Shown: positions 989 through 20,000, counted from the first letter of the stretch. The stretch is DNA of 20,000 bases from an uncultured delta proteobacterium (GCA_963848135.1 CAWKCK010000002.1:489684-509683), one strand, 5' to 3'. The notes: generated by a model not told the origin, from the letters alone. Made by a program: numbers and translations.

Positions 989-1211
989 TTTTATTATTTA
1001 TTTCAGACAGTTAAATTCCAACACCCCTACTCTATTACAGCCAAAACCTGACCTATATTATTAACAAGTAAAGCATCCTTCTGACTAAACTGTTACAATA
1101 TCTTGCAAGCTCAAATTCACTCTTTTTAGCCTCTTTATGTTTTTCACACTTTCGAACCATTCCAGGTTCCAGACCGATAATATCAATACAGTTGCCTTTG
1201 GTCCAGAAGTG

Positions 1212-1239
1212 TTGACACCAGTGATTTTTTTCCTATTAT
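1212..1239 (+). promoter_or_regulatory. sigma70-type promoter for the glycosyltransferase gene
   Basis: TTGACA (1212-1217), 16-nt spacer, TATTAT (1234-1239); about 225 nt upstream of ATG 1465. Confidence 0.55.
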
Positions 1240-1464
1240 TCTCTGCACTGATTTAAAACTCGAAGCGTTGTTCAGCGCTTGATCACCTTACATATCCTGC
1301 GATAGACACTTTCTGCCGAACTATCGCAAGCAGGGCCCGTTGGTGCACTTGCACGTTAACTTAAATGATATATTCAATATGGCATTCGTATTAAATTTGG
1401 ATATTTTTCTTTTTAAAAACGTATTGTGTCCATAAAAAAACTGCCTCAATAGCAAAGGAACATT

Positions 1465-2811: not shown

Positions 2812-2951
2812 TAACCTATTGATACCGAGATTTGCTATAGGGGTGGGTAAAGACGATCAAGCATTCAATGGTGGCTGCATGTTGGGCAGCTGTAGGAATC
2901 ATCGATAGGGAATCGGTGAGCAAAAAAGCCGTGAAACATTATCCCCAATTT

Positions 2952-3290
2952 TTAACCATACTCGTCAGAGAAGGGTTGAAAGGAAAGTTCAATGGCAAAT
3001 GATGTCATAATCGTCACAACCATCATAAATTGTTCGATTTTAATTCTTTCTGCCAATGGCAAAGTTTTTAGCCAATAACCCGCAATGACTGCAAATGAAG
3101 GCATCAGGAACAGCCATATTCTCTCAGTCTCCAAATAAAAAAGACCGGAAAAACTAAATATTAATATGGTTAAGAAAAAACTTGAAGCATAGTTGCGCAT
3201 TACAACGTTTCTTGTATGCTTTAACTCTTTCATTGCCTATAACGATAAAATTGCAGCTGTAAAATTGGGCAGTATAAAAAACGCCGCAAT
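2952..3290 (-). pseudogene. C-terminal remnant of a membrane protein (possibly GT-C-like)
   Basis: 93-aa hydrophobic ORF with LETERIWLF. The same frame continues upstream as hydrophobic IAAFFILPNFTAAILSL across a TAG at 3237-3239; there is no room for an N-terminus before the feoB stop. Confidence 0.55.
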
Positions 3291-3301: not shown

Positions 3302-5485
3302 TTAGCTGAAACCGATCAAGCGTCCGACCTGATATACGCTAAAGGATGCCAGCCATGCCAGTGAGGTACTGTAGAATATACTAAAGAGCATCCACTTAAC
3401 AGACCCCGTTTCGCGTCGTATGGCGGTTACCGTGGCAAGACATGGCAGGTACAAAAGCACGAAAATCATCATCGAAAGGGCAGAGAGGGGTGTCATTCCG
3501 GAAGCCCTGAGTGCCGTTCGCAACCCTTCCGCTTGCTTATCCTCATCGGCAGCATAGAGCACGCCCAGGGTGCTGACGACGATTTCCTTGGCCACGAAAC
3601 CGGTCACCAGGGACACCCCCCCACGCCAGTCGATTCCTATCGGTGCGAACAGCGGGGCTATGGCCTTACCGATCCGCCCCATAAAAGAGTGTTCCATCTT
3701 TTCCGCTTGACGGGTCCGTTTCAGTTCCGTAATCGCGGCCTTTTTGCGCGCTTTCAGCAACCGTTTGTCGGTTTCGGCAGCATTTTGGATCTCGGCATCA
3801 TATCCTGCGCCGATGCGTGCCAATTCCCCTTCGTAATCCTTTGAATAAGTAACATCGCGAGGAAACGCCGAAAGACACCAGATAACCACCGATCCGACCA
3901 GAATGATGCCGCCCATTTTTTTCAAGAAAATTTTGGAGCGATCCCACATGTGAATCAGCAGGCTCCTTAACATCGGTGCTCTGTAAGGTGGGAGTTCCAT
4001 GACAAAAGGTGCATCTGCTCCTTTCAAGAGGGTTGATCTGAACAAACGGCCGGTTATCATCGAGAGGCCGATGCCGAGCAGGTAGACAGCAAAAATGACG
4101 TTGCCGGCCCGCGCACCGAAAAAAGTGCCAGCCAGAGCAATGTAAACCGGGAGTTTGGCCGAACAGGACATGAAAGGCGTAATTAAAATGGTCAGGATGC
4201 GATCTTTTTCACTCTCGAGGGTTCGGGTGGCCATAATGGCCGGTACGTTGCAGCCGAAGCCCATCAACATCGGTATAAAAGATTTCCCATGCAATCCGAT
4301 CAGATGCATGATTTTATCCATCAGAAAGGCTGAGCGTGCCATGTAACCGGTATCTTCGAACAGGGCGATACAGAAAAAAAGGATGAGGATATTGGGCAGA
4401 AAAACGATGACACTACCGACCCCCGCCACAATACCTTCCAATACGAGATCCTTAAAAAGGCCATCGGGCAGATAGTCCGCAAGAATGGCCGATGTTCCGC
4501 TGACGACACGATCGATCCCGCTCATCGGATAATCGCCCAGCGTAAAGGTCAGTTGGAACATGGCCCAGATAAAAAAAACGAATATCGGGAAACCGATAAA
4601 CCGGTTGGTCAACACCAGGTCGATATTTCGCGACATGTCGACACGCTGACGGGTGGTACTGACGAGGACCTCCTTGACGATACCGGCAATGAACCCATAG
4701 CGTTCGTCTGTCATCACAATTTCCGGTTCATCATCGAAACGGTCCCGCAGAAGCTCTCTCAAGGTCTGGGTGTGTTGGAGGATATCCGCCTTGAAGTGGC
4801 CGGCTTTTTCATCAATCCTCTCTTTAACGATCTTGTCATCTTCGAGGAGCTTTATAGCGGTCCATCGGAAATTATAAGGAAATCCATGGCCGACCCTAGC
4901 GTCTATAAGGTGCTCAAGTTCGGTAATCGCTTCTTCGATATCCTTGCTGTATTTCACCCTTCGTTTCGGGCCCCTGGGGATGTCCGCTTCTGCCAATTCG
5001 ATCGCCATTTTGAGCAGCGTGTCAATACCCTCGTTTTTGTTACCGATGGTAAAAGCCACGGGGACATTCAGCAGCTCGGACAACTTGAGGGCATCTATTT
5101 TATTGCCCCTGGCACGGGCCAAGTCAGCCATATTAAGGGCATAGAGGACTTTGCAATCGAGTTCTCTGATCTGGGTGGCAAGATAGAGGCTGCGTTCGAG
5201 ATTGGAGGCATCGATGATATCGATGACGACATCGGGTGTCTCATCGAGAATATAGTTGCGGGCGACGATTTCTTCGATGGAAAAAGGCGTGAGGCTGTAA
5301 GTTCCGGGCAAGTCGATTATTTTTAATTGGTAGCCGTGTTTGAGGACTGTCCCCTCTTTTTTTTCCACGGTCACACCGGGCCAATTGCCGACTTTCTGCC
5401 TTGTTCCGGTCATTCTGTTGAATATCGTCGTTTTACCGGAATTCGGGTTACCAGCCAGTGCGATCGTCAGGCGCTTTGAATTCAT
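3302..5485 (-). CDS. feoB: Ferrous iron transport protein B
   Basis: GTPase motifs GNPNSGKT, VGNWPGVTVEKK, DLPGTYSL and NMAD; membrane gate motifs GFGCNVPA, PFMSCSAKLP, FVMELPPY and LYLPC. Confidence 0.98.
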   Translation of the reverse strand: MNSKRLTIALAGNPNSGKTTIFNRMTGTRQKVGNWPGVTVEKKEGTVLKHGYQLKIIDLPGTYSLTPFSIEEIVARNYILDETPDVVIDIIDASNLERSLYLATQIRELDCKVLYALNMADLARARGNKIDALKLSELLNVPVAFTIGNKNEGIDTLLKMAIELAEADIPRGPKRRVKYSKDIEEAITELEHLIDARVGHGFPYNFRWTAIKLLEDDKIVKERIDEKAGHFKADILQHTQTLRELLRDRFDDEPEIVMTDERYGFIAGIVKEVLVSTTRQRVDMSRNIDLVLTNRFIGFPIFVFFIWAMFQLTFTLGDYPMSGIDRVVSGTSAILADYLPDGLFKDLVLEGIVAGVGSVIVFLPNILILFFCIALFEDTGYMARSAFLMDKIMHLIGLHGKSFIPMLMGFGCNVPAIMATRTLESEKDRILTILITPFMSCSAKLPVYIALAGTFFGARAGNVIFAVYLLGIGLSMITGRLFRSTLLKGADAPFVMELPPYRAPMLRSLLIHMWDRSKIFLKKMGGIILVGSVVIWCLSAFPRDVTYSKDYEGELARIGAGYDAEIQNAAETDKRLLKARKKAAITELKRTRQAEKMEHSFMGRIGKAIAPLFAPIGIDWRGGVSLVTGFVAKEIVVSTLGVLYAADEDKQAEGLRTALRASGMTPLSALSMMIFVLLYLPCLATVTAIRRETGSVKWMLFSIFYSTSLAWLASFSVYQVGRLIGFS

Positions 5486-5978: not shown

Positions 5979-6896
5979 TCAACCCCAAAAAATGATAAAT
6001 ACCGTTCCGATGAGCATGAATACCGCCCCTGCCAGACGCACCCCGATGTTATGTTCCTTGAAGATAACTGCACCGAAAATGACGCCGAAGAGGATGCTGA
6101 GCCGTTTTATGGCGATCATGTATGCGGCTTTGGTTAAGAAAATGGCATACCCGTGACAAACCGCATGCACAAAGAGAAGTGTACCCGCGACCAGGCCTTT
6201 GCCCGGTTGAACAGTGTAAGTCTGGAGGTGGATTCTGCGCATAGCCAGAAGGGCAAGCAAAATCGTCAGATTGAATGCAACAAAAAAGGAAATTGTAAAA
6301 TATAGCGGTGAAGAATGCAATATGCCCTGTTTGCCAACAACAGCGGCAAAACTAAAAATAAAGGCGACGATCATCATCAGCCAGGAACCTTTTTCCTTGA
6401 AAACGGCCGTTAATGGATCCAGAAAGCTTGGTCGGGCAGGATCGAGATTGAGAATGTAGCCGCCGACACAGGTGGTAAGGATACCGATAATACCCCACCG
6501 ATTGGGAATTTCTCCCAGGATCACAGACCCGGTTACGATCATGAACACTGGCGTAAACGCCAGATATGGCACGGTCAGTGATAGGGGTGAAATCCTTATG
6601 GCCTGCATATAAAGCAGGAAACTGACGGCATTGAGTGGCAGGCTGATCAAAAGTGACCACCAGTAGACGGCATCGAGAACCGGACGAGGTGCGAGATAAA
6701 GGCCGATGATGAACATGGGCAGGCTGTATAGCGCCGGATAGGCCACCATGTCATAGGGACTAAGGTGGGCAAAATATTTTTTTACCCATACGTCCTGGGT
6801 AGCGACCGTCAAAGCCGTTAGAAGCGATAGGATAAGCCATAGCATCGGGAAGCCTGAGTGATGGCGATTCATTCGGAACTTTTTCGCGGCATTCAC
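5979..6896 (-). CDS. EamA/DMT family transporter
   Basis: About 10 TM segments in two repeats; AIRISPLSLTVPYLAFTPVF, ILGE and IFKE motifs. The true start may be ATG 6845 (MLWLILS). Confidence 0.9.
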   Translation of the reverse strand: MNAAKKFRMNRHHSGFPMLWLILSLLTALTVATQDVWVKKYFAHLSPYDMVAYPALYSLPMFIIGLYLAPRPVLDAVYWWSLLISLPLNAVSFLLYMQAIRISPLSLTVPYLAFTPVFMIVTGSVILGEIPNRWGIIGILTTCVGGYILNLDPARPSFLDPLTAVFKEKGSWLMMIVAFIFSFAAVVGKQGILHSSPLYFTISFFVAFNLTILLALLAMRRIHLQTYTVQPGKGLVAGTLLFVHAVCHGYAIFLTKAAYMIAIKRLSILFGVIFGAVIFKEHNIGVRLAGAVFMLIGTVFIIFWG

Positions 6897-6910: not shown

Positions 6911-8299
6911 TTATAATTTCTCCAGCTTGACCACCACTTCGATATGATAGGTGTGAGGAAACATGTCCACTGGTTGAACGTTTTCGACGCGATAGTATTC
7001 TTTCATCAGGTCGAGATCTCTGGCAAGGGTGGCCGGATTACAGGAGACGTAGACGATCCTAACCGGCGCCATATCGAGCACCTGTCGCAAAACATGCTTG
7101 TGCATCCCGACCCGGGGTGGATCGATGACGATCACATCTACCGGTGTTGTGATTTGATGAAGCTCCTCGGCAATGTCGCCCTGAATAAATCGACAATTTG
7201 ATATTCGATTTCGACGGCAGTTTTCAATAGCGTCGGACACCGCGCTATCTACAATTTCGATACCGATCACTTCTCTGGCATCTGGCGATAGGCAGATGGC
7301 AATGGTTCCGGTTCCGCTGTAAAGATCGACCACCCGTTCACTTCCCGTTAAGCCGGCAAATGATCGCACAGTTGCGTACAAACGCTCGGCCCCGGCGGTA
7401 TTGGTCTGAAAAAAACTGTTGGCGGAAATGTGGAATTCGTACGTACCGATGCGGTCCCTGATAAAACGATCCCCGGCCAGCAAAAACTCGCTTTCACCCA
7501 GAGTTATGGCCGCCTTGCGGGCGGTGACGTTGTTGACCACCGCGACGATATTCGGGTGGGCGGTCATCAGCTGGGTGGCAAGGGGCAGAAGTGTCTGCCG
7601 TTTTTCGGTGGCCGTAACAATATTCACCATCCATTGGTCCGCAGCCAGCGAATGGCGCAACATCAGGAATCGCCAGAAACCGAGATGGCTTTTCAGCCCA
7701 TAAACCGGTTCACTGGAGGCTCTGACAAATTCCCTGACATGCTCGAGGATGGCATTTCCCAAATTCGGTTGAAGAAGGCACGCCCGGGTGTCGAGCACTT
7801 TGAAAAAGGTCCCGGGGACATGCAGCCCAAGAGCCATCCCGACCTCGACATCCGGTTTGCCCAATTCCTCGGGCATCAACCAGCGCCGGTCGGAAAAAGT
7901 AAACTCCATCTTGTTACGGTAGTGGAAGGTGCAATCCGAGGCGATCGTTTCCCGGACGTCAACGTCCCCGAGATGGCCGATTCGAGCCAAAGTTTCAGCC
8001 ACTTGCCGTTGTTTGTATTCGAGCTGTTTATCGTAGCGGAGAAATTGCCACTTACATCCACCACACGTGCCGCTATACGGACAGGGCGGCGTTATCCGGT
8101 AGGGTGATGACCGCAGCAATTCCATAAGGATGGCTTCGGCGTAATTTTTACGCTTTCGAACAATCCGGATGCGCACCTGATCCATAGGTGCGACCTGGTC
8201 GACAAACACCGCCATATCCTCCACACGCAGCAGGCCACGACCACCGTAAGCCAGATCCGCGATTTCCCCCTCGATAACTTGTCCTTTTTTAATTCCCAC
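6911..8299 (-). CDS. rlmD: 23S rRNA (uracil(1939)-C5)-methyltransferase
   Basis: N-terminal TRAM domain, CPYSGTCGGC Fe-S motif, YRNK, SFFQTN, DLYSGTGTI, DPPR, catalytic YVSCNP, DMFPHTYHIE. Confidence 0.95.
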   Translation of the reverse strand: MGIKKGQVIEGEIADLAYGGRGLLRVEDMAVFVDQVAPMDQVRIRIVRKRKNYAEAILMELLRSSPYRITPPCPYSGTCGGCKWQFLRYDKQLEYKQRQVAETLARIGHLGDVDVRETIASDCTFHYRNKMEFTFSDRRWLMPEELGKPDVEVGMALGLHVPGTFFKVLDTRACLLQPNLGNAILEHVREFVRASSEPVYGLKSHLGFWRFLMLRHSLAADQWMVNIVTATEKRQTLLPLATQLMTAHPNIVAVVNNVTARKAAITLGESEFLLAGDRFIRDRIGTYEFHISANSFFQTNTAGAERLYATVRSFAGLTGSERVVDLYSGTGTIAICLSPDAREVIGIEIVDSAVSDAIENCRRNRISNCRFIQGDIAEELHQITTPVDVIVIDPPRVGMHKHVLRQVLDMAPVRIVYVSCNPATLARDLDLMKEYYRVENVQPVDMFPHTYHIEVVVKLEKL

Positions 8300-8414
8300 A
8301 ATGTCCTCTCCCGGTCCTGTTTATCCGTATACTCCAGGTCGTGTTAAATTGAAAGTGACAACGGTTGCTTTATGTTTAATATTATCAACAAATATTTGAA
8401 TTTAAGGATAAAAT

Positions 8415-9137
8415 GTGGTTATGATTCATTCAGGACAACGTTTTCAGAATATCTGTTTTACCAGTAAAGGTTATCGGCTCAAAGGCGTTCTGCACCTGCC
8501 GGAGGTAGAATCCCCGCCAGTGGTCATCGGGGTGCACGGTCTGTTGAGCAACAAAGAATCTGCAAAACAGCGCGAACTCGCCCGGTTATGCATTGCGGCA
8601 GAAATAGCCTATTTGAGGTTCGATCACAGGGGCTGCGGCGGCAGCCAGGGCTTTTTCCCGGAGGTCACCACGCTGGAGGCCCGTGTGGATGACCTTATCG
8701 CCGCCGTTTCGTATATCCGGGCCCAACTGAATAAGGGCCGTATCGGCATTTTTGGCAGCAGTATGGGGGGAACCGTTTGCCTATCCGCAGCCAAACACAT
8801 TTGCCCCGATGCAATGGTGATATATGCCGCGCCACTGCAGAATCGTTCCATTCGAGGAGTGGAAAACGAAAGCGGTGAAAATGCCGTTCCCAGTTTACAC
8901 CGCCACCCATTTAATATTTCCAACCACATAGCGGGCCTGCGCAACCTTCTGATATTTCATGGGGACGCCGATAAGGTGGTCCCTTTCTCAGACGGACTCA
9001 GAATATACGATCAAGCCACCGCGCCGAAACGGTTTGTACGACAGCCAGGGGGCGATCACCCCATGAGCCATGAAAAGCACCAAAAAGCGTTCACCCGAAT
9101 AACCGTTCGGTGGTTTGAATCTTACCTGAATAGATAA
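8415..9137 (+). CDS. Alpha/beta fold serine hydrolase
   Basis: HG oxyanion motif, RFDHRGCGGSQG, nucleophile elbow GSSMGG, HGDADKVVP (Asp), GGDH (His). The start may be ATG 8421. Confidence 0.9.
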   Translation: MVMIHSGQRFQNICFTSKGYRLKGVLHLPEVESPPVVIGVHGLLSNKESAKQRELARLCIAAEIAYLRFDHRGCGGSQGFFPEVTTLEARVDDLIAAVSYIRAQLNKGRIGIFGSSMGGTVCLSAAKHICPDAMVIYAAPLQNRSIRGVENESGENAVPSLHRHPFNISNHIAGLRNLLIFHGDADKVVPFSDGLRIYDQATAPKRFVRQPGGDHPMSHEKHQKAFTRITVRWFESYLNR

Positions 9138-9240: not shown

Positions 9241-10194
9241 ATGACAGACAATCATAGCAAAAAGTTTTTCCGGCGGGCGTTTGTCAAAACGGTCCTTCGG
9301 CGAACATTCGCCCTGCTCGCTCTCGCCGGCTTGATCTATGGACTGACGGCACTGATCTATGCCACCCGCACGATATTCAAGGTCAAGATGAATTATGCGG
9401 TCGTGCTGGAACGATTCGGTGGCAAACGCGAAGCCGTCACCGCGGTGGGATGGCATGTACGATTGCCCTATTTTACTCGTATCGAGCAGGAAGTCTCGTT
9501 GATGAATCAGCGCCTTTTTCTGGGAGGCACGATCGAACCGATTCGGATTATCTCCAAGGAGAATGTCGCTTTGTGGACATCAGCCCTGTTGACCTACCGT
9601 ATACGCGACCTCAATACCTGGGCCATCGAAAACCTCGACCCTCTGAATCTACTCCAGGGAGATTATGACGGCATCGTCAAAGACATCCTTCAGGCACAGC
9701 AGGTCAACTTGCTGATCAGTGACCGGGAATCGATCAAGGAGGATATTTTCAGCGCGCTGAAATCCCGTCCGATCAACGAAGGCGGTCCCACTTTGGAGGA
9801 AAAATACGGCATCGACGTCGTCAGCTTCGTTTTAAAAGATACCCGCTTTGGTGACAAACTGGTGGAAGCCACCGAAGAAAAGAAACGCCGGGAGTTGATC
9901 GCGGAGGCCGAAAATTATGCCGCTGACCAGGAAGCCAGCCGAATTCGCAAACTATACGCGGCCTACCTCGAGAGTATTGAATCGCTGCAGAAGGCCATCG
10001 GACGCTCGGATGGTGTCACCGATGTCGCCATATTTGAATTCTTGAATCAACAAAAATGGGCGGCGGCTTACGAAAAAAACCAGGGCGATCAACAGACCAT
10101 CGTTATCCAGAACACCCAGGGTTCACCGGCACTGACCATTCCGCCGATGGCCTCCGATTCGAAAGATCGCCAGGAGAAAGAGAATGCCCCGTAG
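9241..10194 (+). CDS. SPFH (band 7/stomatin/HflC-like) membrane protein
   Basis: GAGGAG RBS (9230-9235); one N-terminal TM segment, then the SPFH signature YAVVLERFGG...GWHVRLPYF, SKENV, YGIDV..F.LKD, followed by a charged coiled coil (EEKKRRELIAEAE). Confidence 0.9.
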   Translation: MTDNHSKKFFRRAFVKTVLRRTFALLALAGLIYGLTALIYATRTIFKVKMNYAVVLERFGGKREAVTAVGWHVRLPYFTRIEQEVSLMNQRLFLGGTIEPIRIISKENVALWTSALLTYRIRDLNTWAIENLDPLNLLQGDYDGIVKDILQAQQVNLLISDRESIKEDIFSALKSRPINEGGPTLEEKYGIDVVSFVLKDTRFGDKLVEATEEKKRRELIAEAENYAADQEASRIRKLYAAYLESIESLQKAIGRSDGVTDVAIFEFLNQQKWAAAYEKNQGDQQTIVIQNTQGSPALTIPPMASDSKDRQEKENAP

Positions 10195-13100
10195 GCTGAC
10201 CAAAGAAATCAAGTATATCCGCTTGCCGGAAGAACGTATTCATGAGATCCATGACCTCGTTTCCTCATGGCCATATGAAATTATGGTTTTTATGCGGGCC
10301 CGCCTCAACCAGTACCGACCACCATCGGATGTCGTCAACACCGTGCTGGAATTGATCTTATCCCTGTTCATGTCAGCGCCTAAGAAAAAATTCGATGTCC
10401 TCAAGAATCCGGATATCCTGACTGATTGGCAGAAACGATTCGAAATTTCGGGGCAGACTAATCCCCAGGAGGCATGGAACAAGATTCTGGAAAAGGAGAT
10501 ATCCGCCAAGGATTACATCTATCTGCTGTCACTGTTGGATCTCGAATTGACTAACGTGCATATCCCCGATGATCTGCGCACTCTTTTTGAAAAAATATAC
10601 CGGGCGCATATCCGCAAGGAATACATCTCCGATCCCTCGGTCCCCAAAGTGCCCTTGCTGTTAGTCATTGGTCCGAGTGGTAGCGGAAAAACCTCCACCG
10701 TCATCGAGGCCATCGAAAAGGTGATATTTGCCAATGAAATCCGGCCTGAAGTCGACTTGAAACAAAAAAAAGAAGAACTATTGGCCGGTGAACCCTTTTG
10801 GAAAACAATTGAGGAAATCGACCCCACCCTGTCGATGGAAATCGCCCGCCGAAAAAAAATAAAACTCTACAAACGGCTGACAAAAATCCCTTTGATTCGC
10901 AGCGTCTTCAAAAAAAGAATCGGCCGCGGCCTCTCCGACCTTCAGGAACAAGGCCTGATGGTCGACTGGTCAATGGTCACCCCAAACGATTACCAGACTG
11001 CCTTGGCGGGCGAACCCGGGAATTATTTCAAGAAAGCCCTTGGCGACCCGCGCAAGACCGCCATCCGGCACATCGAGGAAGCGCACAGTGCTTTCGGTAA
11101 ATCAAACGGACGTCAATCGGGAGTTGAACGTCAGCAGAGGTCATTGATCGATACCTCCAACATTATACTGGACGAAATCATCAACGGACGTCGCGATTGC
11201 CTGTTGATTGCCACCACTGATCAACCGGAACATTTCGACGCGGCTATTTACCGCCGTTTTGTAGAAAAAGGCAAGATCATCAAGGTGGCTGACTTTTGGA
11301 AAGCGCCCAAAAATCTGCGTGCAGTCGTACGCTTAGAACTACTGCGCCATGATATCCGGGTTGCCACCGCCCCTGACAACCGATGCCACCGGACAACCAT
11401 TTGCCTGGACCCTGTGGCTTTGGATCAGGCGGTGGAAAAACTCTATGTCGTTTTCGATGAGCGCTCATTAAAAATTATCCCCTCCTATGTCCGCAAACTT
11501 GTCGATTCAATCATTGAAATCAAAGGGGGGTTTGTGCCGGAGTACTTAGACGATGCGTTACTTGTCCGCCATGCATTCGAGCTGGTGGCCATGAATTCCT
11601 ATGGTGACCTCTTCGGCAAAGTTGTCGACCGCATGGACCGTAAAGTCAAATGGGAAGAATACCTCGGCGAGATTAAAAACGTCTTTTCAGAAATGGCCAA
11701 CAACTGTCTCCACTATGGCGTCAGCGAGGAAAAAGGCGTGGTGCTGAACGGCCCTCCCGGCAGCGGCAAAACGTTTCTGGCCCGTACCTGGCTGAGCGAG
11801 AATCAAGACATCCATGATATCTCGGCCAGCCCGAGTATGCTCCAGGATCCGGTCAATCCCATTGACGGGGCCATAGAAAACCTCGAGAAGCTCTACGATA
11901 TCGCCAAGATGATTGCCCCAACAGTGGTCTTCTTCGACGAGGGGGATTCTCTGGCACCCAAACGCAGCCCTTCAGGAGGTTCGCCTTCCGACAAGCTGAC
12001 CAACAAATTCCTGAACATCATCGATGGGGAAATACCGTTCAACCGGGTCTTCACTGTACTGACCACCAACCGGATCGACATACTCGACCCGGCCCTTATT
12101 CGCTCGAAGCGCCTGAAAGTCATGGAGGTGTCGGGCAACCTCCGCAAAAAGGACATCATCGGTATCATCCAACGTTCCCTCGATGGGGTCCCTTTGTCTG
12201 AGGGTCTCGACGCCAATACCATCCTTGATGTGGCGCAGCCCCTGTGCAACACACCGGCAGATTTCACGGCTTTTATAGAAAAGGCCTGCTCCCTGCGCAG
12301 CACCGAATATGAAGTCCTGGTGCGATTGCGTAATCTCGCAACCGGGGAACGTGAAATCATGACCAACTTTATCAAATTCAACTTTAAAACCCTGATCGGC
12401 ATCTTGGATGCCGTCAAGGCACCCCAAGACATACGGACCGTTGTAAAGGAGGATCCGGACGGTTTTCTCGACCACTACGAGAAAATAATCGAATTGCTGG
12501 ATACGATCAGGGATGTCAAAGAATATCCTCTGATGCCGTCGCACCTGCAGTCGGCCCGGCAGGAAATCTCACAGAGCCCTACGAAAAAGGGCAAGGTCCA
12601 GCTTGACGAATTTCTGGAAGCCGAATTAAGCCAGGAACCGCAGGTCGGTTTTATTATCGGTGTCGGCGCCAACGATGTTTCGGGTGTTCTGCTGCCGATT
12701 GCCACCAGCCTGACTTACAACCTGGGCCCAGAAAAGGTTATCGTTACTGGTGCGGTATCGACCGCAGCACCGGGAGCGGCCGAATTGGACATGGCGGTTA
12801 AGATGACCCAACAATCGGCGCAAGAAGCCCTCACAATGGTCAAAAACTATTTACAGGATCTGCAACCGAAGGTCAGCACCTCACGCCTGTTGGGTGACTT
12901 TCTGGATCACTACACGATTCATCACCAGCTCCTGAGTGCCTCATACAATGTCGGCGGTCCGTCCGCCGGCTACGCACTGGCGTTGAACACGCTCTCCACG
13001 CTTCTCTTGATGCCGGTTTACAACGATTTCGGTATTACCGGCGCACCGTGGACCAAAGGCGTCAAACGCGGCGAAGTCGGGGGTTCGGTCATCATCGGCG

Positions 13101-13603
13101 GCCACAAGAAGAAGACCCAAAAAGTTCTCCTGCACCTGCGGCGCATGTACATGCCGTTGCAGAATTATAAAGATCTGGAGTATGAATTCCTGGATAACTA
13201 CTGGGAACACGGCAAGGACATACTGGGCGTGACCCATTTCGGCGAATTGGTTCCGGAAGTGATCTATCTCGGCCCGGATTACGAACAAATTCTCCAGGAG
13301 CTGATCGCCCTTCGGATCGACTACAAGCGCCGCAAATTCAAGGGCCAACGCCCGCCGGATTCACAAAAAGAAAAAATACTGCATAGCAAGGACGTCTTGA
13401 AGATCCAAATGGAAAAGGAAATCGTCGCCCGTCTGGAAGCCTTACGACATTACCTTCGCTCGCCAACCCGTGATCCGCACCTCTCACTGGAAGAAATATT
13501 TCGAAAAAAACGGTCGCGCTTCGGAGGCTTCAGACCGCTGATGACTTTCCTGAAAAAACGGGGTGAGAAATTTTTCCGTACGGATGGGGATCGACTCCCC
13601 TGA
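10184..13603 (+). CDS. Tandem classic-AAA ATPase fused to a C-terminal Lon (S16) protease domain
   Basis: Two Walker A motifs (GPSGSGKT aa163, GPPGSGKT aa523), Walker B motifs HIEE and VFFDE, two SRH-like motifs, and a Lon-type region from about aa818 with GPSAG (S927) and GGHKKK (K977). AGGAG RBS; overlaps the SPFH stop by 11 nt. Confidence 0.88.
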   Translation: MPRRLTKEIKYIRLPEERIHEIHDLVSSWPYEIMVFMRARLNQYRPPSDVVNTVLELILSLFMSAPKKKFDVLKNPDILTDWQKRFEISGQTNPQEAWNKILEKEISAKDYIYLLSLLDLELTNVHIPDDLRTLFEKIYRAHIRKEYISDPSVPKVPLLLVIGPSGSGKTSTVIEAIEKVIFANEIRPEVDLKQKKEELLAGEPFWKTIEEIDPTLSMEIARRKKIKLYKRLTKIPLIRSVFKKRIGRGLSDLQEQGLMVDWSMVTPNDYQTALAGEPGNYFKKALGDPRKTAIRHIEEAHSAFGKSNGRQSGVERQQRSLIDTSNIILDEIINGRRDCLLIATTDQPEHFDAAIYRRFVEKGKIIKVADFWKAPKNLRAVVRLELLRHDIRVATAPDNRCHRTTICLDPVALDQAVEKLYVVFDERSLKIIPSYVRKLVDSIIEIKGGFVPEYLDDALLVRHAFELVAMNSYGDLFGKVVDRMDRKVKWEEYLGEIKNVFSEMANNCLHYGVSEEKGVVLNGPPGSGKTFLARTWLSENQDIHDISASPSMLQDPVNPIDGAIENLEKLYDIAKMIAPTVVFFDEGDSLAPKRSPSGGSPSDKLTNKFLNIIDGEIPFNRVFTVLTTNRIDILDPALIRSKRLKVMEVSGNLRKKDIIGIIQRSLDGVPLSEGLDANTILDVAQPLCNTPADFTAFIEKACSLRSTEYEVLVRLRNLATGEREIMTNFIKFNFKTLIGILDAVKAPQDIRTVVKEDPDGFLDHYEKIIELLDTIRDVKEYPLMPSHLQSARQEISQSPTKKGKVQLDEFLEAELSQEPQVGFIIGVGANDVSGVLLPIATSLTYNLGPEKVIVTGAVSTAAPGAAELDMAVKMTQQSAQEALTMVKNYLQDLQPKVSTSRLLGDFLDHYTIHHQLLSASYNVGGPSAGYALALNTLSTLLLMPVYNDFGITGAPWTKGVKRGEVGGSVIIGGHKKKTQKVLLHLRRMYMPLQNYKDLEYEFLDNYWEHGKDILGVTHFGELVPEVIYLGPDYEQILQELIALRIDYKRRKFKGQRPPDSQKEKILHSKDVLKIQMEKEIVARLEALRHYLRSPTRDPHLSLEEIFRKKRSRFGGFRPLMTFLKKRGEKFFRTDGDRLP

Positions 13604-13631: not shown

Positions 13632-14882
13632 TCAAGTGGGTTCAGTCCGCTTCAAAAGACGGCGCCGTAAATTGTTCAGGGCCGTGTAGGCAAACATTTT
13701 TTTGTTCAACTCACGGTCGTCGAAGCGAAAATTATACCGTCGCGCCTGACTGCCGGTAGGTCCCGATAGACCGATGCACACGGTCCCAACCGGTTTGCCC
13801 GTGGTACCGCCGGTCGGTCCGGCAATTCCGGTGGTCGACAGCCCGTAATCGGCGTCGGCTCTCAGGCGTACCCCTTCGGCCATCTCGATCGCCGTGTCTT
13901 CATGCACCGCTCCACAGCGATCGATCGTACGGGAATCCACCCCAAGGATATCAATTTTAGACTGATTGGAATATGTCACCGCACAAAATTTGAAATAATC
14001 CGAGCTGCCAGAGACATCCGTCAGCATATTGGCAATCAGTCCACCGGTGCAGCTTTCAGCCACTGCGATCGTCGATTCCAGTTGTCGCAGCAGATTCCCG
14101 ACCACCTCAGCCATCGATTCGCCGTCAATTGAAAGAATCCGATGCGCCAGTCGTTCTTTTATCCATGCGTCGGCATCTTCGGCATTCTTATCCGCATCGC
14201 CGTCGTATCCACTACGGATGCTGACCCTTACGCTTATTTCCGGAAAAACGGCGCAAAGCCCCAGACGCAGCTGTGGAAAAACCGTTTCGAAGCCGGAAAG
14301 CTGTTCAGCGACGGCCGCCTCGGTCATTCCAAATACGGTCAAATGTTTTTTAAGAGCGGATCGGCCTGAAGCTGAACGGATCATCGGCAACACATCATCT
14401 GAAAACATATGCCGCATTTCGATCGGAACACCAGGAAGGCAATATACGGTGCAGCCGTCGAGTTTGATATGAAATCCCGGAGCCGTGCCGATTGGATTGG
14501 AAATACATACTGATCCGATCGGCAACTGGGCCTGTTTGCGGTTGGCCGGACTATAGAGTCGCTGCCGTTTATTGAAGAAGGCGTTTACGGATTCAAGGGC
14601 TTCGCTGCTCAACGCCAATTCCACGCCAACGGCAAGGGCAACAGCCTCTGCGGTAACATCATCCTCGGTCGGACCAAGACCGCCGGTCACTATGGCCACA
14701 TCCGAGCGTTTAGAAATTTCTTTGAGTACGGCTGCCAACTCGTCAATATCATCACCCACGCAACAGTGACGCCGGACTTCGATTCCCGCCTCTTCGAGAC
14801 GCAGCGCGATAAAGGCGGAGTTTGTATCGATCACTGAACCGCTGCGAATCTCCTCACCGGTCGCAAGGATTTCTGCTCTCAC
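13632..14882 (-). CDS. cinA: CinA-like protein (MoCF-like pyrophosphatase domain plus NMN deamidase PncC domain)
   Basis: TGEE...DTNS, TGGLGPTEDDVT, NPIGTAPG, LPGVP; AVAESCTGG, GSSDYF, YSNQSK, TGIAGP.GG..GKPVGTV. Confidence 0.95.
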   Translation of the reverse strand: MRAEILATGEEIRSGSVIDTNSAFIALRLEEAGIEVRRHCCVGDDIDELAAVLKEISKRSDVAIVTGGLGPTEDDVTAEAVALAVGVELALSSEALESVNAFFNKRQRLYSPANRKQAQLPIGSVCISNPIGTAPGFHIKLDGCTVYCLPGVPIEMRHMFSDDVLPMIRSASGRSALKKHLTVFGMTEAAVAEQLSGFETVFPQLRLGLCAVFPEISVRVSIRSGYDGDADKNAEDADAWIKERLAHRILSIDGESMAEVVGNLLRQLESTIAVAESCTGGLIANMLTDVSGSSDYFKFCAVTYSNQSKIDILGVDSRTIDRCGAVHEDTAIEMAEGVRLRADADYGLSTTGIAGPTGGTTGKPVGTVCIGLSGPTGSQARRYNFRFDDRELNKKMFAYTALNNLRRRLLKRTEPT

Positions 14883-14942: not shown

Positions 14943-15743
14943 TCACGGATTCGGGGAATCCGGCGGGTGGAGAATAAACATGGCGGGTGTTACGGGCACG
15001 TTGGCCACGAACCGTTCGATATCGAGTTGCAGAACGGTTCCGGAATCGGTACTGAAACGCAGGCGCGCCGGGACCAGGTATCCCTGAATCGTCTGCATGT
15101 CAATGATGTCAACCTGGTAACGACGCGTACCGTCAGTACCGAAGATGTCGAATCGCAAAACAGTCTGCCGGTCTTTGCTCAAGTAAATTTTTTGCCTAAC
15201 AGACCACCACTTCTCCAGCACGAGAATATCGCCTTCACCGGACGCCCCTTTCTGCAGGAAGACCCGGCTGTGATCACGAATCGGCGTACGACCGGCCAGA
15301 ACCGCGGCGATGTCGCCGACAGTCGCCGGAATCCGAATAAGTCTGTCGAGGCGAGGCTCAGAGGTTTTAATCTTCCTGTAGGAACCGCCAGGATCCTGGA
15401 GATCGACGGCATAAAAATGACGTCCATCGGCCGCAATTTTTACAACTGGCCGACCTGAGACAAGAACAGCGATAGCGAGTTTATCCGGCAACGATGCGAT
15501 CCAGGCCGCCCTCTCCGATAGAGTTGGCGTATCAGAATCCCACAGCCGTATATGGCCGATGCCTTTGAAGGATGACAAGTTCGAATTGGTATGCGTAATC
15601 TCCTGCAATACTGACTCAGCGTCGCGCTGCGCTAAAACACTGTCGGCCGGTGGCATCGGTTTCAAGGTGGAACAGGCCGACATCAGGGGCAACAAAGCGG
15701 CAAGGGCAGCAGCAATGATACCGCGGTGAGACACGGAGATCAT
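14943..15743 (-). CDS. Lipoprotein, LolB-like/DUF4292-type
   Basis: Signal peptide with lipobox LMSAC; beta-rich body ending GYLVPARLRF...LQLDI; 4-nt overlap with the TPR gene. Confidence 0.6.
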   Translation of the reverse strand: MISVSHRGIIAAALAALLPLMSACSTLKPMPPADSVLAQRDAESVLQEITHTNSNLSSFKGIGHIRLWDSDTPTLSERAAWIASLPDKLAIAVLVSGRPVVKIAADGRHFYAVDLQDPGGSYRKIKTSEPRLDRLIRIPATVGDIAAVLAGRTPIRDHSRVFLQKGASGEGDILVLEKWWSVRQKIYLSKDRQTVLRFDIFGTDGTRRYQVDIIDMQTIQGYLVPARLRFSTDSGTVLQLDIERFVANVPVTPAMFILHPPDSPNP

Positions 15744-17449
15744 GGTTGCTCCAGCAGTTTCTTTATCTTCTCCTCTATTACCGGTCGATCCTTGTGTTTC
15801 TTTTCTAATGACCGCTCATATGCCTGGCGGGCGTTCTTCCTGTCTCTGGCTTTAAAGTACGCGTCACCAAGGTGCTCAAGGATAATCGGATCATCCGGTA
15901 CGAGTTCAACCGCTTTTTTAAGTGTTTCCAGAGCCTTGGCATAGTTGCCCTTTTTGTAGTAGACCCACCCGAGGCTATCGGTAATGTAACCGTCGTCGGG
16001 CTTATATTTGAGGGCTTCTTTGACTAACCGCTCGGCCTCATCCAGGTTTTTACCGAGATCGGCATATGTATACCCGAGATAGTTCAAGGCATTGGCATCC
16101 TCTGGATCGAGTTTGATGACGGTCTTCATGGCTGTAATCGAGTCTTCTTTGCGACCCCATTTGTCATAAACAACCCCTAATCGGAAGTAGTATTTGGGAT
16201 CCTCCGAATTGATCTGTATCGCTCGTTGTAACAGCTGCTCCGCTTTATCATACTCTTCACTATCTTCGTAGAATGTACCGAGGTAATACAAGAATTCCGC
16301 ATTATCCGGGTACTTTTTAATTACTTCCTCCATCAGATCGACAGATTCCTGCATCTGCCCCTTCTCGCGATAAAGAAAAGCCAGATGAACCACAGCATCC
16401 TGGTAGAAGCGGGATTGCGGCGTTACTTTTGAAAAGTGCGCCAAGGCCTTGTCAGGGTCCTTAATACCATAGTATGCAACTCCGGCAATATGGTGAAGGT
16501 CGGGGTTGTCCGGTGCGCCTTTTAGGAGTCCTTCCACTACGATAATGGCGTCTTGATACCTGTCAGGTTCGAGATAGGTCTGGATGACTTTAAGAACGAC
16601 ATCGAATTCATTACTGCTTCTGAGGCCCAAATCCTGAAAAGTCTTTTCAGCATCCTTCCGCCGCCCTTCCTTCCAATAGATTAGGCCAAGCTCGAGCGCT
16701 GCGCGTATATTTAAGGGGTTCTTTTTTAGTATGTCTTCGTAAGTACGGACGATAATGTCGGTTTTACCCTGGTCTTTATAGAGTTCGAGAAGTTCGAAGC
16801 GAGGTTCGAGCAGAGAGGGTTCGATCTCCAGAGCTTTCTTAAACGCCTGTTCAGCTTGGGCATCCAGGCCCTGCTCGGCGTAAATTTTACCCAGAAACAA
16901 ATTCCCCGTATACGAATCGGGAAAGTTTTTGACCAGTTCTTCGAATACCCCGCGAGCGTCCTCAATACGATTTTCGCGCAGATAAATGCCGCCGAGGAGC
17001 AAATAGGCGTTTTGTTGGCTTTGGTCGATCGCGATTACTTTTTTGTATGCCCGGATAGCATCGTCGAGTTGGCCCTGAGATTGACGAATTCGACCGTACA
17101 GGATCAGCATCTCCACATCTTCCGGATAATCTTTTAAAATATCCTCGATGACGGACAATGCGCTCTGTTGATCCTTCAACTGGACAAATTCCATGGCGAT
17201 CTCTTTTTTCAAGTAGAGCGATTCCGGATCGAGTTCAATGGCTTTTTCCAGCAATGCCGCCGCCTGCTCCCTCTCGCCGTTCTGTTTCGCCAGCTGTGCT
17301 TCGGTGTAGTAATAATATGCATTATCGGGCCGATCGATCTCAGCGGTCTGCACCCTCTCCCTGCGGTGCGGGCCTTCTGTGGTAGCGCACCCTATTATTA
17401 ATGCCCCGGCTATTGTAGCAGCGGCCAGCCGCTGTAGTAATTGTCGCAT
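15740..17449 (-). CDS. Tetratricopeptide-repeat lipoprotein
   Basis: Lipobox LIIGC; many TPRs; conserved C-terminal NALNYLGYTYAD, GYITDSLGWVYYK and ILEHLGD motifs. Confidence 0.92.
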   Translation of the reverse strand: MRQLLQRLAAATIAGALIIGCATTEGPHRRERVQTAEIDRPDNAYYYYTEAQLAKQNGEREQAAALLEKAIELDPESLYLKKEIAMEFVQLKDQQSALSVIEDILKDYPEDVEMLILYGRIRQSQGQLDDAIRAYKKVIAIDQSQQNAYLLLGGIYLRENRIEDARGVFEELVKNFPDSYTGNLFLGKIYAEQGLDAQAEQAFKKALEIEPSLLEPRFELLELYKDQGKTDIIVRTYEDILKKNPLNIRAALELGLIYWKEGRRKDAEKTFQDLGLRSSNEFDVVLKVIQTYLEPDRYQDAIIVVEGLLKGAPDNPDLHHIAGVAYYGIKDPDKALAHFSKVTPQSRFYQDAVVHLAFLYREKGQMQESVDLMEEVIKKYPDNAEFLYYLGTFYEDSEEYDKAEQLLQRAIQINSEDPKYYFRLGVVYDKWGRKEDSITAMKTVIKLDPEDANALNYLGYTYADLGKNLDEAERLVKEALKYKPDDGYITDSLGWVYYKKGNYAKALETLKKAVELVPDDPIILEHLGDAYFKARDRKNARQAYERSLEKKHKDRPVIEEKIKKLLEQP

Positions 17450-17506: not shown

Positions 17507-18490
17507 TCAGTCGGCAGTACTTTCTTCGGTATAGGAAGCAAAATCGGGTATTTCCTTTTTAAAAAACTCCCGCATCTTTTTAACGATGTTCTTTTCTACC
17601 TGCCGAACACGTTCTCGGGAGATCCCGTATCGATCGCCAATCTCCTGCAGGGTCACCGGATTGTCGGAAAAAATTCGCAGGTCGAATATTTCTTTCTCTC
17701 GGGGTGTCATTTTTTTCCGAAACTCGGCAATCTTGTTATGCAACAGCGCTTCGATCTCTTTTTTTGCAACCTTATCTTCGATCGATTCGGTAGTGGTGCT
17801 CAGAAACTCAATGCGCTCCGTATCAGAATCGTCTTTGAAAGGCGCATCCAGCGAAAGATCCCATCCGTCGAGGCGCTGGTCCATGTCCACGATTTCTTTT
17901 TCAGAAACGCCGAGGCGTTCCGAGAGCAATTTCGGTTTGGGGTCAAACCCCTGGTCGATGAGCTTTTGTTTTTCCTTTTTCAGTTTGAAAAAGAGTTTTC
18001 GTTGCCCTTGGGTGGTTCCGATCTTCACCAATCGCCAGTTGTCCATGATAAATTTCAGAATGTATGCTTTTATCCAAAATGACGCATAGTAGGAAAACTT
18101 GACGTTTTTATAGGGATCGAATTTACGCACGGCCTGCATGAGACCGATGTTGCCTTCCTGAATCAAGTCCAGCAAGTTCTGCATCCATACTCTCTGGAAT
18201 TCCAAGGCGATTTTCACCACCAGCCTTAAATTGGAAGTCACCAAAGCATACGCGGCCTCTCGATCGCCATATTCCTGAACGCGAATACCGTATTCTTTTT
18301 CCTCTTCGCGTGTCAGCAGTCTATAGCGGCTGATTTCAGTCAAGTACCGTTGGAGAGGATCATACTTGGCCAAAGCCTTATCGGCGGAATGCCCTCCCGC
18401 CGGTGGTTTCTGCCGGTTGTCTATCGGTTTGAGAGGCTTTTTAGGTTTTTTGTATTCCGTTTTCTTCTCGGTCTTATTTTGCTTGCTCAT
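17507..18490 (-). CDS. rpoH: RNA polymerase sigma-32 factor
   Basis: Region 2 NLRLVVKIA, DLIQEGNIGLMQAV, FSYYASFWIKA; RpoH box QRKLFFKLKK; region 4 TLQEIGDRYGISRERVRQVE. ATG 18490 is preferred over the track's start at 18526. Confidence 0.93.
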   Translation of the reverse strand: MSKQNKTEKKTEYKKPKKPLKPIDNRQKPPAGGHSADKALAKYDPLQRYLTEISRYRLLTREEEKEYGIRVQEYGDREAAYALVTSNLRLVVKIALEFQRVWMQNLLDLIQEGNIGLMQAVRKFDPYKNVKFSYYASFWIKAYILKFIMDNWRLVKIGTTQGQRKLFFKLKKEKQKLIDQGFDPKPKLLSERLGVSEKEIVDMDQRLDGWDLSLDAPFKDDSDTERIEFLSTTTESIEDKVAKKEIEALLHNKIAEFRKKMTPREKEIFDLRIFSDNPVTLQEIGDRYGISRERVRQVEKNIVKKMREFFKKEIPDFASYTEESTAD

Positions 18491-18692
18491 TTGGTCCGCC
18501 TTGCTACGAATAGTCCGGGTTAACAATGCTGAACGACAGGTTGGATAATTTTCTACCCTTGTATTATTCAGGTGACGCTATTCGTGAAATTTCGGCTTCT
18601 CCTCATCTCGAACGGTTTGAGGCCGCTCATCAAATTGATCTTTTTATTGTGGACATCAAATGGTTCTTATGCTAAGCACCCTCTGGACTTGT

Positions 18693-19539: not shown

Positions 19540-19634
19540 ACTGTATTTATTGTCTTAAGATATCTGTCATCATTCAGCGGCCCCGATCTTGAACGGAATT
19601 AACAGTGATGCACCAGCGGAAAAGAGGATCTATG

Positions 19635-20000
19635 ATGGCTAAACCCTTGAGCGACCAGCAACTTGCCGGTCAAAGACTGATGGTCGGCTTTGACGGCACG
19701 GCTTTCAACAGCGACCTGCAATTCCTTATCGAACAGCTTCAGGTCGGTGGTGTTATTCTCTTTACCCGCAATATCCTCGATCCGCGACAATTGCAGAACC
19801 TCTGCGCAGATATTCAGCGATGCGGCCATCGGTCGGGTCAGCCGCCCCTTTGCATCGCCATAGATCAAGAGGGTGGTGATGTCGCCAGGCTAAAAAAACC
19901 GTTTACCCAACTCCCGGGTGCCTCTCAAATGAAAAACGAAGCGGACGCCGCCGAATTTGTCCGCATTACGGCAGCCGAATTGCGCTCCGCCGGTGTCAAC
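19635..20000 (+). CDS. nagZ: GH3 beta-N-acetylhexosaminidase; runs off the right edge of the window
   Basis: Hand translation: AGAGGA RBS, MAKPLSDQQLAGQRLMVGFDG...VGGVILFTRNI...IAIDQEGGDVARL...AELRSAGVN. Alternative ATG at 19632. Confidence 0.92.
   Translation, partial: MAKPLSDQQLAGQRLMVGFDGTAFNSDLQFLIEQLQVGGVILFTRNILDPRQLQNLCADIQRCGHRSGQPPLCIAIDQEGGDVARLKKPFTQLPGASQMKNEADAAEFVRITAAELRSAGVN

Follow-up and report, generated by a model that had tools for sequence, protein, structure and literature searches.

Textbook energy-dependent proteases of bacteria comprise ClpXP/ClpAP, HslUV, Lon, FtsH and the Mpa-proteasome, and to our knowledge each of them combines one particular protease fold with one particular ATPase clade. 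Lon (MEROPS family S16) joins ATPase and protease in a single chain, and its subfamilies LonA, LonB, LonBA and LonC are all described as having one Lon-type ATPase module (PMC9569914). Cdc48, VAT and Cpa use a separate 20S proteasome (PMC6017811). Proteins of the SPFH family pair with FtsH and also with serine proteases of the NfeD type; the latter are encoded beside SPFH genes in conserved operons and act on the SPFH proteins (PMC2636767). Here we analyse a 20,000-nucleotide stretch of DNA (the window) from an uncultured delta proteobacterium (GCA_963848135.1 CAWKCK010000002.1:489684-509683). The assembled genome, 6.03 Mb in size and 98.65% complete, carries the window about 490 kb into contig C2. 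The stretch contains a gene (10184..13603, + strand) for a protein of 1139 residues, called AAA-Lon below, in which two AAA modules (D1 and D2) are fused to a Lon-type protease domain, and which directly follows a gene for an SPFH/Band 7 protein. Judging from sequence, predicted models and analogy, we consider it probable that AAA-Lon is a single-chain, self-compartmentalised ATP-dependent protease working with an SPFH scaffold.

Two AAA modules and a Lon-type protease domain in one chain

The first-pass annotation of this DNA had read the gene as an unusual fusion of Cdc48/p97-like D1 and D2 ATPase modules to a Lon peptidase. The present analysis supports two Cdc48-type AAA modules and a Lon peptidase in one chain, with D1 recognised by its predicted fold and weakly AAA-like in sequence. 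The reading frame is open through 1139 codons, and its translation contains the motif strings that had been cited (TALAGEPGNYFKKAL, ATTDQPEHFDAAIYRRF, APTVVFFDEGDSLAPKR, NKFLNIIDG and TTNRIDILDPALIRSKRL) as well as both P-loops at the places given for them, GPSGSGKT at residues 163-170 (10670-10693) and GPPGSGKT at residues 523-530 (11750-11773). A hidden Markov model scan found AAA (PF00004) at E 2.4e-27 in two stretches, the best of which covers residues 519-646, and Lon_C (PF05362) at residues 809-999 with 27.4 bits against a gathering cut-off of 21.1. Among NCBIfam models the best is CDC48 (TIGR01243), which matches D2 only (model positions 481-711 of 733) and at 84.5 bits sets the protein apart from Cdc48 itself, for which the family cut-off is 802.65; next in rank are models of proteasome-activating nucleotidase and FtsH, with several Lon models after them that match weakly across residues 805-1030. 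From the N to the C terminus, the predicted order is an unassigned N-terminal domain, a diverged D1 ring, a classic D2 ring, a Lon Ser-Lys ring and a helical C-terminal extension.

A full-length AlphaFold model (mean predicted local distance difference test score, pLDDT, 82.9; predicted TM score, pTM, 0.64) was compared with known structures, so that the fold matches reported here are those of predicted models and not of solved structures. The model aligns with p97/Cdc48 across both modules (640-760 columns, E down to 7.5e-21), and its D1 and D2 together superpose on the type II AAA proteins NVL (Z 20.7, 462 residues) and Rix7 (Z 20.2, 466 residues). Two tandem classic-fold AAA modules are thus shared with Cdc48/p97/VAT, NVL, Rix7 and Pex1/6, which also provide the best sequence and fold matches. 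D2 and the protease domain together superpose on whole Lon, with MtaLonA (7fid; Z 18.1, root-mean-square deviation 4.5, 408 residues) and BsLon (3m6a; Z 17.6, deviation 4.5, 390 residues) as examples, and the predicted geometry of ATPase to protease therefore resembles that of LonA, with a deviation of 4.5 over about 400 residues. Conservation was read from two alignments, one of 36 sequences down to 33% identity and a smaller one of 14. Ten residues are invariant in 36/36 sequences: K169, E299, K529, E586, N629, R640, R643, S927, T952 and K977.

The Pfam scan matched 29 families, and among the 25 of them listed there is neither the LON substrate-binding N domain of LonA, nor the CDC48_N or CDC48_2 domain of Cdc48/p97/VAT, nor Peptidase_M41, and none covers residues 1-140. 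In contrast to LonB, AAA-Lon is without a membrane insert: in a simple Kyte-Doolittle scan with 19-residue windows, the top hydropathy (1.66, residues 821-839) lies inside the core of the protease domain, and neither D1 nor D2 has a segment like the LonB membrane anchor. The N-terminal domain (residues 1-150, 10184..10633) is modelled as a beta-hairpin and a helical bundle, and its ESM Atlas features gave chance-level matches only (0.85, 84/256 features shared).

The same full-length protein is found well beyond this assembly. A search of 5.8 billion clustered proteins, in which 8000 candidates were scored, returned 773 relatives at E <= 0.001. Among the 120 relatives listed, the length is 1107-1154 residues, query coverage 97-100% and sequence identity 69-98%. 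This number of matches, with long coverage among those listed, takes AAA-Lon far beyond chance. Relatives are encoded by 335 stretches in a set of 185,579 species genomes, and 80 of these loci were kept. Their sources range from the complete chromosomes of Desulfosarcina alkanivorans PL12, D. widdelii PP31 and D. variabilis to a draft genome of D. cetonica and a metagenome-assembled genome of Desulfatitalea. The fusion that the first-pass annotation had proposed is accordingly real and no chimera, since cultured Desulfosarcina species with complete genomes encode the protein at full length.

The protease domain carries an invariant Ser-Lys pair

The Lon-type (S16) protease domain comprises residues ~809-1029 (12608..13270), an assignment that draws on Pfam, PDB profiles, fold and invariant residues. 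A family profile of this domain matched Lon protease domains only (9 of 9 PDB matches), led by M. jannaschii LonB (E 1.4e-5), T. onnurineus LonB (2.3e-5), B. subtilis LonBA (7.7e-5) and E. coli LonA (5e-3); with 1.4e-5 as its best value, the domain is remote from known Lon in sequence. The predicted fold is close to BsLonBA (8dvh; Z 18.4, 181/188 residues), AfLonB (1z0e; Z 18.1, 193/195), MjLonB (1xhk; Z 17.9, 181/187) and EcLonA (1rr9; Z 17.9, deviation 2.5, 178/182). The C-terminal region of the model thus has the Lon fold that had been predicted for it (Z 17.9-18.4 over 178-193 residues).

The dyad of E. coli Lon consists of S679 and K722. In AAA-Lon the putative catalytic serine, Ser927 (12962-12964), lies in GGPSAG and aligns with GPSAG of BsLonBA and of a LonA, and the putative catalytic lysine is Lys977 (13112-13114), the fourth residue after GG in GGHKKK; the T952-G953 pair between them is also conserved. 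A proline precedes the serine as in the A-type Lon centre (PMC9569914). Exactly 42 residues are reported to separate Ser and Lys in LonA and LonB (PMC9569914), whereas the gap between Ser927 and Lys977 is 49 residues because of a 7-residue insert between T952-G953 and G972-G973. From the model and the conserved residues we identify the C-terminal domain as a Lon protease fold with a Ser-Lys dyad.

Unlike Lon, the protein continues beyond this domain for about 110 residues. In the model, the extension (residues 1030-1139, 13271..13600) forms two long helices (1031-1052 and 1059-1092), in which E1077 and R1083 are invariant, followed by a basic, poorly conserved tail that is absent from the most divergent members. 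Residues 1005-1139 have a net charge of +9, and residues 1100-1139 one of +7. A search for shorter proteins gave mostly fragments of short contigs and no clear stand-alone form of the Lon region. One protein of 595 residues (P0154) has a caspase domain at residues 4-234 (Peptidase_C14, E 5.5e-18) and shares 42% identity over residues 273-584 with the Lon domain and C-terminal extension of the family (query 808-1120), indicating that the module of Lon domain plus extension is also joined to another N-terminal partner.

A complete D2 and a strongly diverged D1

By its sequence, D2 (residues ~495-760, 11666..12463) is a complete classic-clade AAA module. In addition to the Walker A lysine K529, it has a Walker B pair, D585-E586 (11936-11941), a sensor-1 residue, N629 (12068-12070), and two candidate Arg fingers in the second region of homology, R640 (12101-12103) and R643 (12110-12112). 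Its best PDB match in phmmer is p97 D2 (E 3e-40, residues 502-708 aligned), within a leading group made up of p97, VAT, Cdc48, NVL, AFG2 and Rix7 (E 3e-40 to 1e-23). Family profiles of D1 and D2 were scored on a nine-sequence database composed of five Cdc48_N-bearing proteins and, from the same genome, three FtsH-like proteins and LonA; bit scores are quoted, since the E-values refer to nine sequences. With the D2 profile, each AAA domain of the Cdc48_N-bearing proteins scored 77-99 bits, the FtsH-like proteins 70-73 and LonA, by its P-loop only, 3.5. With the D1 profile, Cdc48-type domains scored 5-21 bits and LonA 0.7. Both modules are therefore set apart from Lon-type ATPases, in agreement with the first-pass annotation. 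A beta-hairpin before sensor 1 is the hallmark of the HCLR clade, to which Lon's own ATPase belongs. The D2 model has no such hairpin between helix 601-612 and strand 622-628, and AAA-Lon thus differs from Lon, with its single HCLR-clade module, in having ATPase modules that are classic-clade and duplicated.

D1 (residues ~150-480, 10631..11623) is hardly recognisable in sequence when compared with the D1 of Cdc48/p97, and a helical insert of about 75 residues (~185-258, 10736-10957) separates its Walker A helix from strand 2. Alone against PDB sequences, it gave P-loop matches only (best E 0.026). The D1 and D2 profiles nevertheless match each other from Walker B through the second region of homology into the lid (hhalign, E 3.6e-5, probability 71%), and the D1 scores on Cdc48-type domains came from this same segment. 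K169 of the Walker A motif and E299 of a Walker-B-like IEEAH (11075-11080) are in the invariant set, and R357 and R358 are nearly invariant. Residues 1-490 were also modelled on their own (pLDDT 81.5, pTM 0.77), and the top Foldseek matches of this model, at about E 1e-6, were p97 N-D1, Cdc48, MSMEG_0858, FIGL-1 and Rubisco activase. In an exhaustive VIA-align comparison with 48,161 chains, from which 50 rows are listed, the top 25 rows are all classic-clade AAA proteins with Z 14.1-17.2 (Trip13, Ycf2/FtsHi, p97, Rix7, Yta7, NVL, VAT, FtsH, Yme1, Pex1/6, Mpa, spastin, Vps4, ATAD2, Rpt, ATAD1 and Msp1). The lower rows hold ORC/Cdc6 (Z 13.9), ClpA (13.2), DnaA and RFC, a moderate margin of about 3 Z units, and there is no Lon structure among the 50 rows. 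The models thus identify D1 as a classic AAA fold with a very diverged sequence. At its pore-loop-1 position, TALAGE (10997-11014) by alignment, the window protein has Leu-Ala, as does p97 D1. Leu-Ala occurs in 8/14 sequences, those of the window's clade, and Trp-Tyr or Tyr-Tyr in the 6/14 that are divergent members.

An SPFH gene is coupled to the AAA-Lon gene

The gene directly 5' of AAA-Lon (9241..10194, + strand) encodes an SPFH/Band 7 membrane protein of 317 residues (Pfam Band_7, E 1.1e-15). The first-pass annotation did not mention this neighbour. The protein has a basic N-terminal tail, a hydrophobic segment at residues 23-41 (hydropathy peak 2.08), an SPFH domain at residues 47-232 and a helical C-terminal part that is strongly conserved, for example in its QQKWA..YEK and PALTLP stretches. 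It is divergent: its sole PDB match is stomatin (E 0.05), and it has no NCBIfam match. The SPFH stop codon (10192-10194) overlaps the AAA-Lon start region by 11 nt, the AAA-Lon ATG being at 10184, and an AGGAG sits 8 nt before this ATG.

The pairing is conserved between genomes. A Band 7 gene lies directly 5' of AAA-Lon in 9/9 loci from other genomes of the phylum, where AAA-Lon identity is 53-68%, and the SPFH gene does so in all 67 loci of the genome collection that have at least 1000 nt of upstream DNA. A stricter position test was passed by 65 of these 67, the other two being deletion variants. A metagenome scan gave three usable loci, each of them from the main clade and each with the SPFH gene upstream. 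When 401 genomes, evenly sampled from the phylum, were searched (cut-offs E <= 1e-50 for AAA-Lon and E <= 1e-20 for the SPFH orthologue), the 10 that contain AAA-Lon were also the 10 that contain the SPFH orthologue, with a single copy of each gene and the two adjacent. The SPFH orthologue is in no other genome of the sample; this co-occurrence is a count and not a test, kin not being independent. SPFH identity tracks AAA-Lon identity from locus to locus. AAA-Lon and the SPFH protein form a strict two-gene module.

Both deletion variants come from metagenome-assembled genomes. In L086 (3440-6037), the SPFH frame runs to about residue 238 and continues straight into AAA-Lon at about residue 511, with a frameshift thereafter. 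In L034 (3840-5995), a 58-residue SPFH remnant is followed by an open reading frame of 659 residues that comprises D2 and the Lon domain. These may be real deletions or assembly faults.

A facultative first gene of the cluster (8415..9137, + strand) encodes an alpha/beta-hydrolase of 240 residues (Pfam Hydrolase_4, E 9.8e-18) that belongs to peptidase-type families (S33, S9 and S15 profiles). A homologue is upstream of the SPFH gene in 31 of the 62 loci with at least 2000 nt of upstream DNA. Promoter-like hexamers, identified as consensus matches only, cluster at 8349-8425. One might speculate that the hydrolase trims peptides set free by the AAA-Lon protease.

A putative SPFH-associated protease

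With the domain identities, catalytic residues, predicted folds, conserved operon and co-occurrence taken together, the arrangement that we favour is as follows. AAA-Lon would probably form a hexamer, as do Cdc48/p97, FtsH and Lon, and by analogy with these, ATP-driven unfolding would thread substrates through D1 and D2, stacked as rings, and on into the Lon chamber for cleavage. The gene pairing and the known links of SPFH proteins to FtsH and NfeD proteases (PMC2636767) lead us to infer recruitment by SPFH binding: most likely, an SPFH assembly at the membrane would recruit, confine or enclose the protease, and the pair would survey or process membrane-associated proteins. The pair would then parallel FtsH with HflK/C, and the m-AAA protease with prohibitin, but with Lon as its protease.

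FtsH-HflK/C is the closest functional analogy that we can offer for the pair. FtsH-HflK/C and m-AAA-prohibitin likewise match a classic-clade AAA protease with an SPFH protein (PMC2636767), the evidence at the present locus being genetic coupling only. FtsH, however, has one AAA ring, a zinc metalloprotease and transmembrane helices of its own, whereas AAA-Lon has two predicted rings, a Ser-Lys Lon domain and no membrane segment, and the window SPFH protein belongs to a separate, divergent subfamily. NfeD/STOPP with stomatin also combines an SPFH protein and a serine protease in a conserved operon, but the protease part of NfeD is ClpP-like and ATP-independent (PMC2636767), whereas that of AAA-Lon is Lon-fold and fused to two AAA modules. 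It is this fusion within the chain that also separates AAA-Lon from Cdc48, VAT and Cpa with their separate proteasome.

Several observations weigh against a processive, membrane-caged protease of general importance. Unlike in Cdc48/p97, pore loop 1 of D2 is not aromatic: its position, placed by alignment and model secondary structure, reads NPIDG (P-I-D-G), and an aromatic residue is found there in 0/14 aligned sequences. The window protein therefore has an aromatic pore loop in neither ring, and with non-aromatic pore loops, processive threading is not assured. In D1, the acidic position before Glu299 varies (E, D, L or V in the 14 sequences) and so does the sensor-1 position, so that D1 may bind ATP yet hardly hydrolyse it; in the window's clade, it may be a nucleotide-binding ring with weak or nil hydrolysis. 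The topology of the partner also matters. In 14/14 SPFH sequences, the N-terminal flank of the hydrophobic segment has 4-8 Lys/Arg and the C-terminal flank 2-4, and this positive-inside count mildly favours a topology like that of HflK/C, in which the SPFH domain is periplasmic. If so, only the conserved basic tail of about 21 residues could meet a cytoplasmic protease. The divergent members of 33-39% identity fall outside the loci in which the SPFH pairing was counted. The family is patchy as well, with 10/401 genomes of the phylum and 0/13 other genomes of the same order, indicating that the pair is an accessory system and not a housekeeping one.

Some of the same evidence can be read differently. 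The SPFH protein might itself be the main substrate, with AAA-Lon as a dedicated protease that extracts and cleaves SPFH subunits, as NfeD/STOPP does with stomatin; this would mean regulation of SPFH assembly instead of general quality control. One-to-one co-occurrence and translational coupling fit such a dedicated pair, as do the strongly conserved SPFH C-terminal part and the action of NfeD-type serine proteases on the SPFH proteins of their operons (PMC2636767). A two-ring unfoldase is, however, heavy machinery for tail cutting, and the data do not separate SPFH as substrate from SPFH as scaffold. We consider this reading unlikely as the main role, and the two roles are compatible and not exclusive. 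Quite unlikely is a conflict or anti-phage module, in which an SPFH membrane sensor would signal infection and the AAA-protease effector would destroy cellular or viral proteins. The patchy distribution, the fusion of the Lon-plus-extension module to a caspase-like domain in P0154 (a combination typical of conflict systems) and weak PADLOC matches to IetA and TRIP13 AAA models (E 1.8e-11 to 2e-4) would suit it. These matches are confined to the generic AAA core, however, and the SPFH and hydrolase proteins gave none. Ordinary chromosomal genes surround the cluster, the window shows no integrase, transposase or other defence gene, and the identities of both genes fall together across taxa, as in vertical descent.

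It is also quite unlikely that the Lon domain is an inactive assembly or gating element, which would make the protein an SPFH-associated disaggregase or extractase, a Cdc48-like remodeller. RadA/Sms and ComM, which are among the fold matches (Z 14.5-16.7), carry Lon-fold domains without protease function, and a Ser-Lys spacing of 49 is unusual next to the 42 of LonA and LonB (PMC9569914). Without catalysis, it would be hard to account for the persistence of Ser927, Thr952 and Lys977 with their contexts GGPSAG, TGAP and GGxxxK in 36/36 sequences, some of them as low as 33% in identity. As for the fusion being an artefact of assembly or gene calling that combines a Cdc48-like gene with a Lon gene, deletions or frameshifts in 2/80 kept loci (L034 and L086) illustrate that faulty metagenome assemblies can occur, and nothing else was found in its favour. 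With 120 listed relatives of 1107-1154 residues at 97-100% query coverage, loci in the complete chromosomes of D. alkanivorans, D. widdelii and D. variabilis, and a window placed ~490 kb inside a contig of a 98.65% complete genome, we regard the chimera as practically excluded and this reading as ruled out. A single-chain protease that works with an SPFH scaffold is the explanation that we consider most probable.

Distribution, novelty and implications

In a search of 1.84 billion representative proteins, 163 matched at E <= 1e-30. About nine clusters are full-length members of the family, down to 35% identity, and the matches below them are plain Cdc48-like proteins whose similarity is confined to D2. 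Among 14 further representative matches scanned with Pfam for other AAA-plus-Lon_C architectures, 13 are multi-AAA/Cdc48-like proteins without Lon_C and one is a caspase fusion (P0154). One divergent full-length member (P0127, MBR9683063.1; 37% identity) is annotated as coming from a Candidatus Woesearchaeota metagenome-assembled genome. The aromatic D1 pore loops of the divergent branch, which includes this member, and a protease domain that scores best against archaeal LonB would allow an archaeal origin followed by transfer into sulfate-reducing Desulfobacterales. Separately, clusters of archaeal proteins about 910 residues long (Thermoproteota, Bathyarchaeota) combine PF00004 with Lon_C in the ESM Atlas, at a feature score of 0.97. 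LonA itself matches PF00004, so that the combination does not prove a classic-clade ATPase and these clusters are a lead only.

Individual homologues are interrupted. There is one in-frame TGA in an AAA-Lon homologue (G333:C4:53746-57069, locus L011) and one in-frame TAA in an SPFH homologue (G226:C97:35545-36453). These stops may be sequencing errors, pseudogenes or recoding.

The source names of the relatives are only 'AAA family ATPase', 'SpoVK/Ycf46/Vps4 family' or 'transitional endoplasmic reticulum ATPase'. The sequences are thus already in databases under generic names, and automatic clustering lists AAA with Lon_C, but the architecture and the partnership appear uncharacterised. The literature searched, which included PMC2636767, PMC11237479, PMC7159879 and PMC9569914 and excluded subscription journals and supplements, contained no account of a Lon with a classic-AAA double ring, nor of an operon combining SPFH and Lon genes. 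We tentatively suggest, as a possibility somewhat short of even, that the pair represents a further class of bacterial ATP-dependent protease, in which a two-ring classic-AAA unfoldase and a Lon chamber come with an obligate SPFH membrane cage of their own, the SPFH pairing having arisen independently on a Lon chassis.

A Lon chamber driven by a Cdc48-like double ring would mean that protease and ATPase modules are interchangeable, and AAA-Lon would offer a natural single-chain 'Cdc48 plus protease' for mechanistic study. The system could reveal how a ring without aromatic pore loops moves its substrate and what a degenerate D1 contributes. As a compact two-gene system, it could also test why SPFH scaffolds associate with proteases, a question that is open for HflK/C, prohibitins and stomatins. 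Since the genes are present in cultured Desulfosarcina species, such experiments are possible.

Genomic neighbourhood

The remaining genes of the window flank the cluster on both sides. On the minus strand upstream of it are genes for an M20/M28-type peptidase (2-799), FeoB (3302-5485), an EamA transporter (5979-6896) and a tRNA U5-methyltransferase-like protein (6911-8299). Downstream, CinA (13632-14882), a TPR protein (15740-17449) and a sigma-70 family factor (17507-18526) are encoded on the minus strand, and the start of a glycoside hydrolase family 3 gene (19605-20000) on the plus strand. Between the peptidase and FeoB genes, the GC content falls to 0.33-0.34 at window positions 1001-3000, compared with about 0.46-0.54 elsewhere in the window. 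Inside this island lies an open reading frame of 448 residues (1465-2811, + strand) with no Pfam match. The island may be recently acquired DNA.

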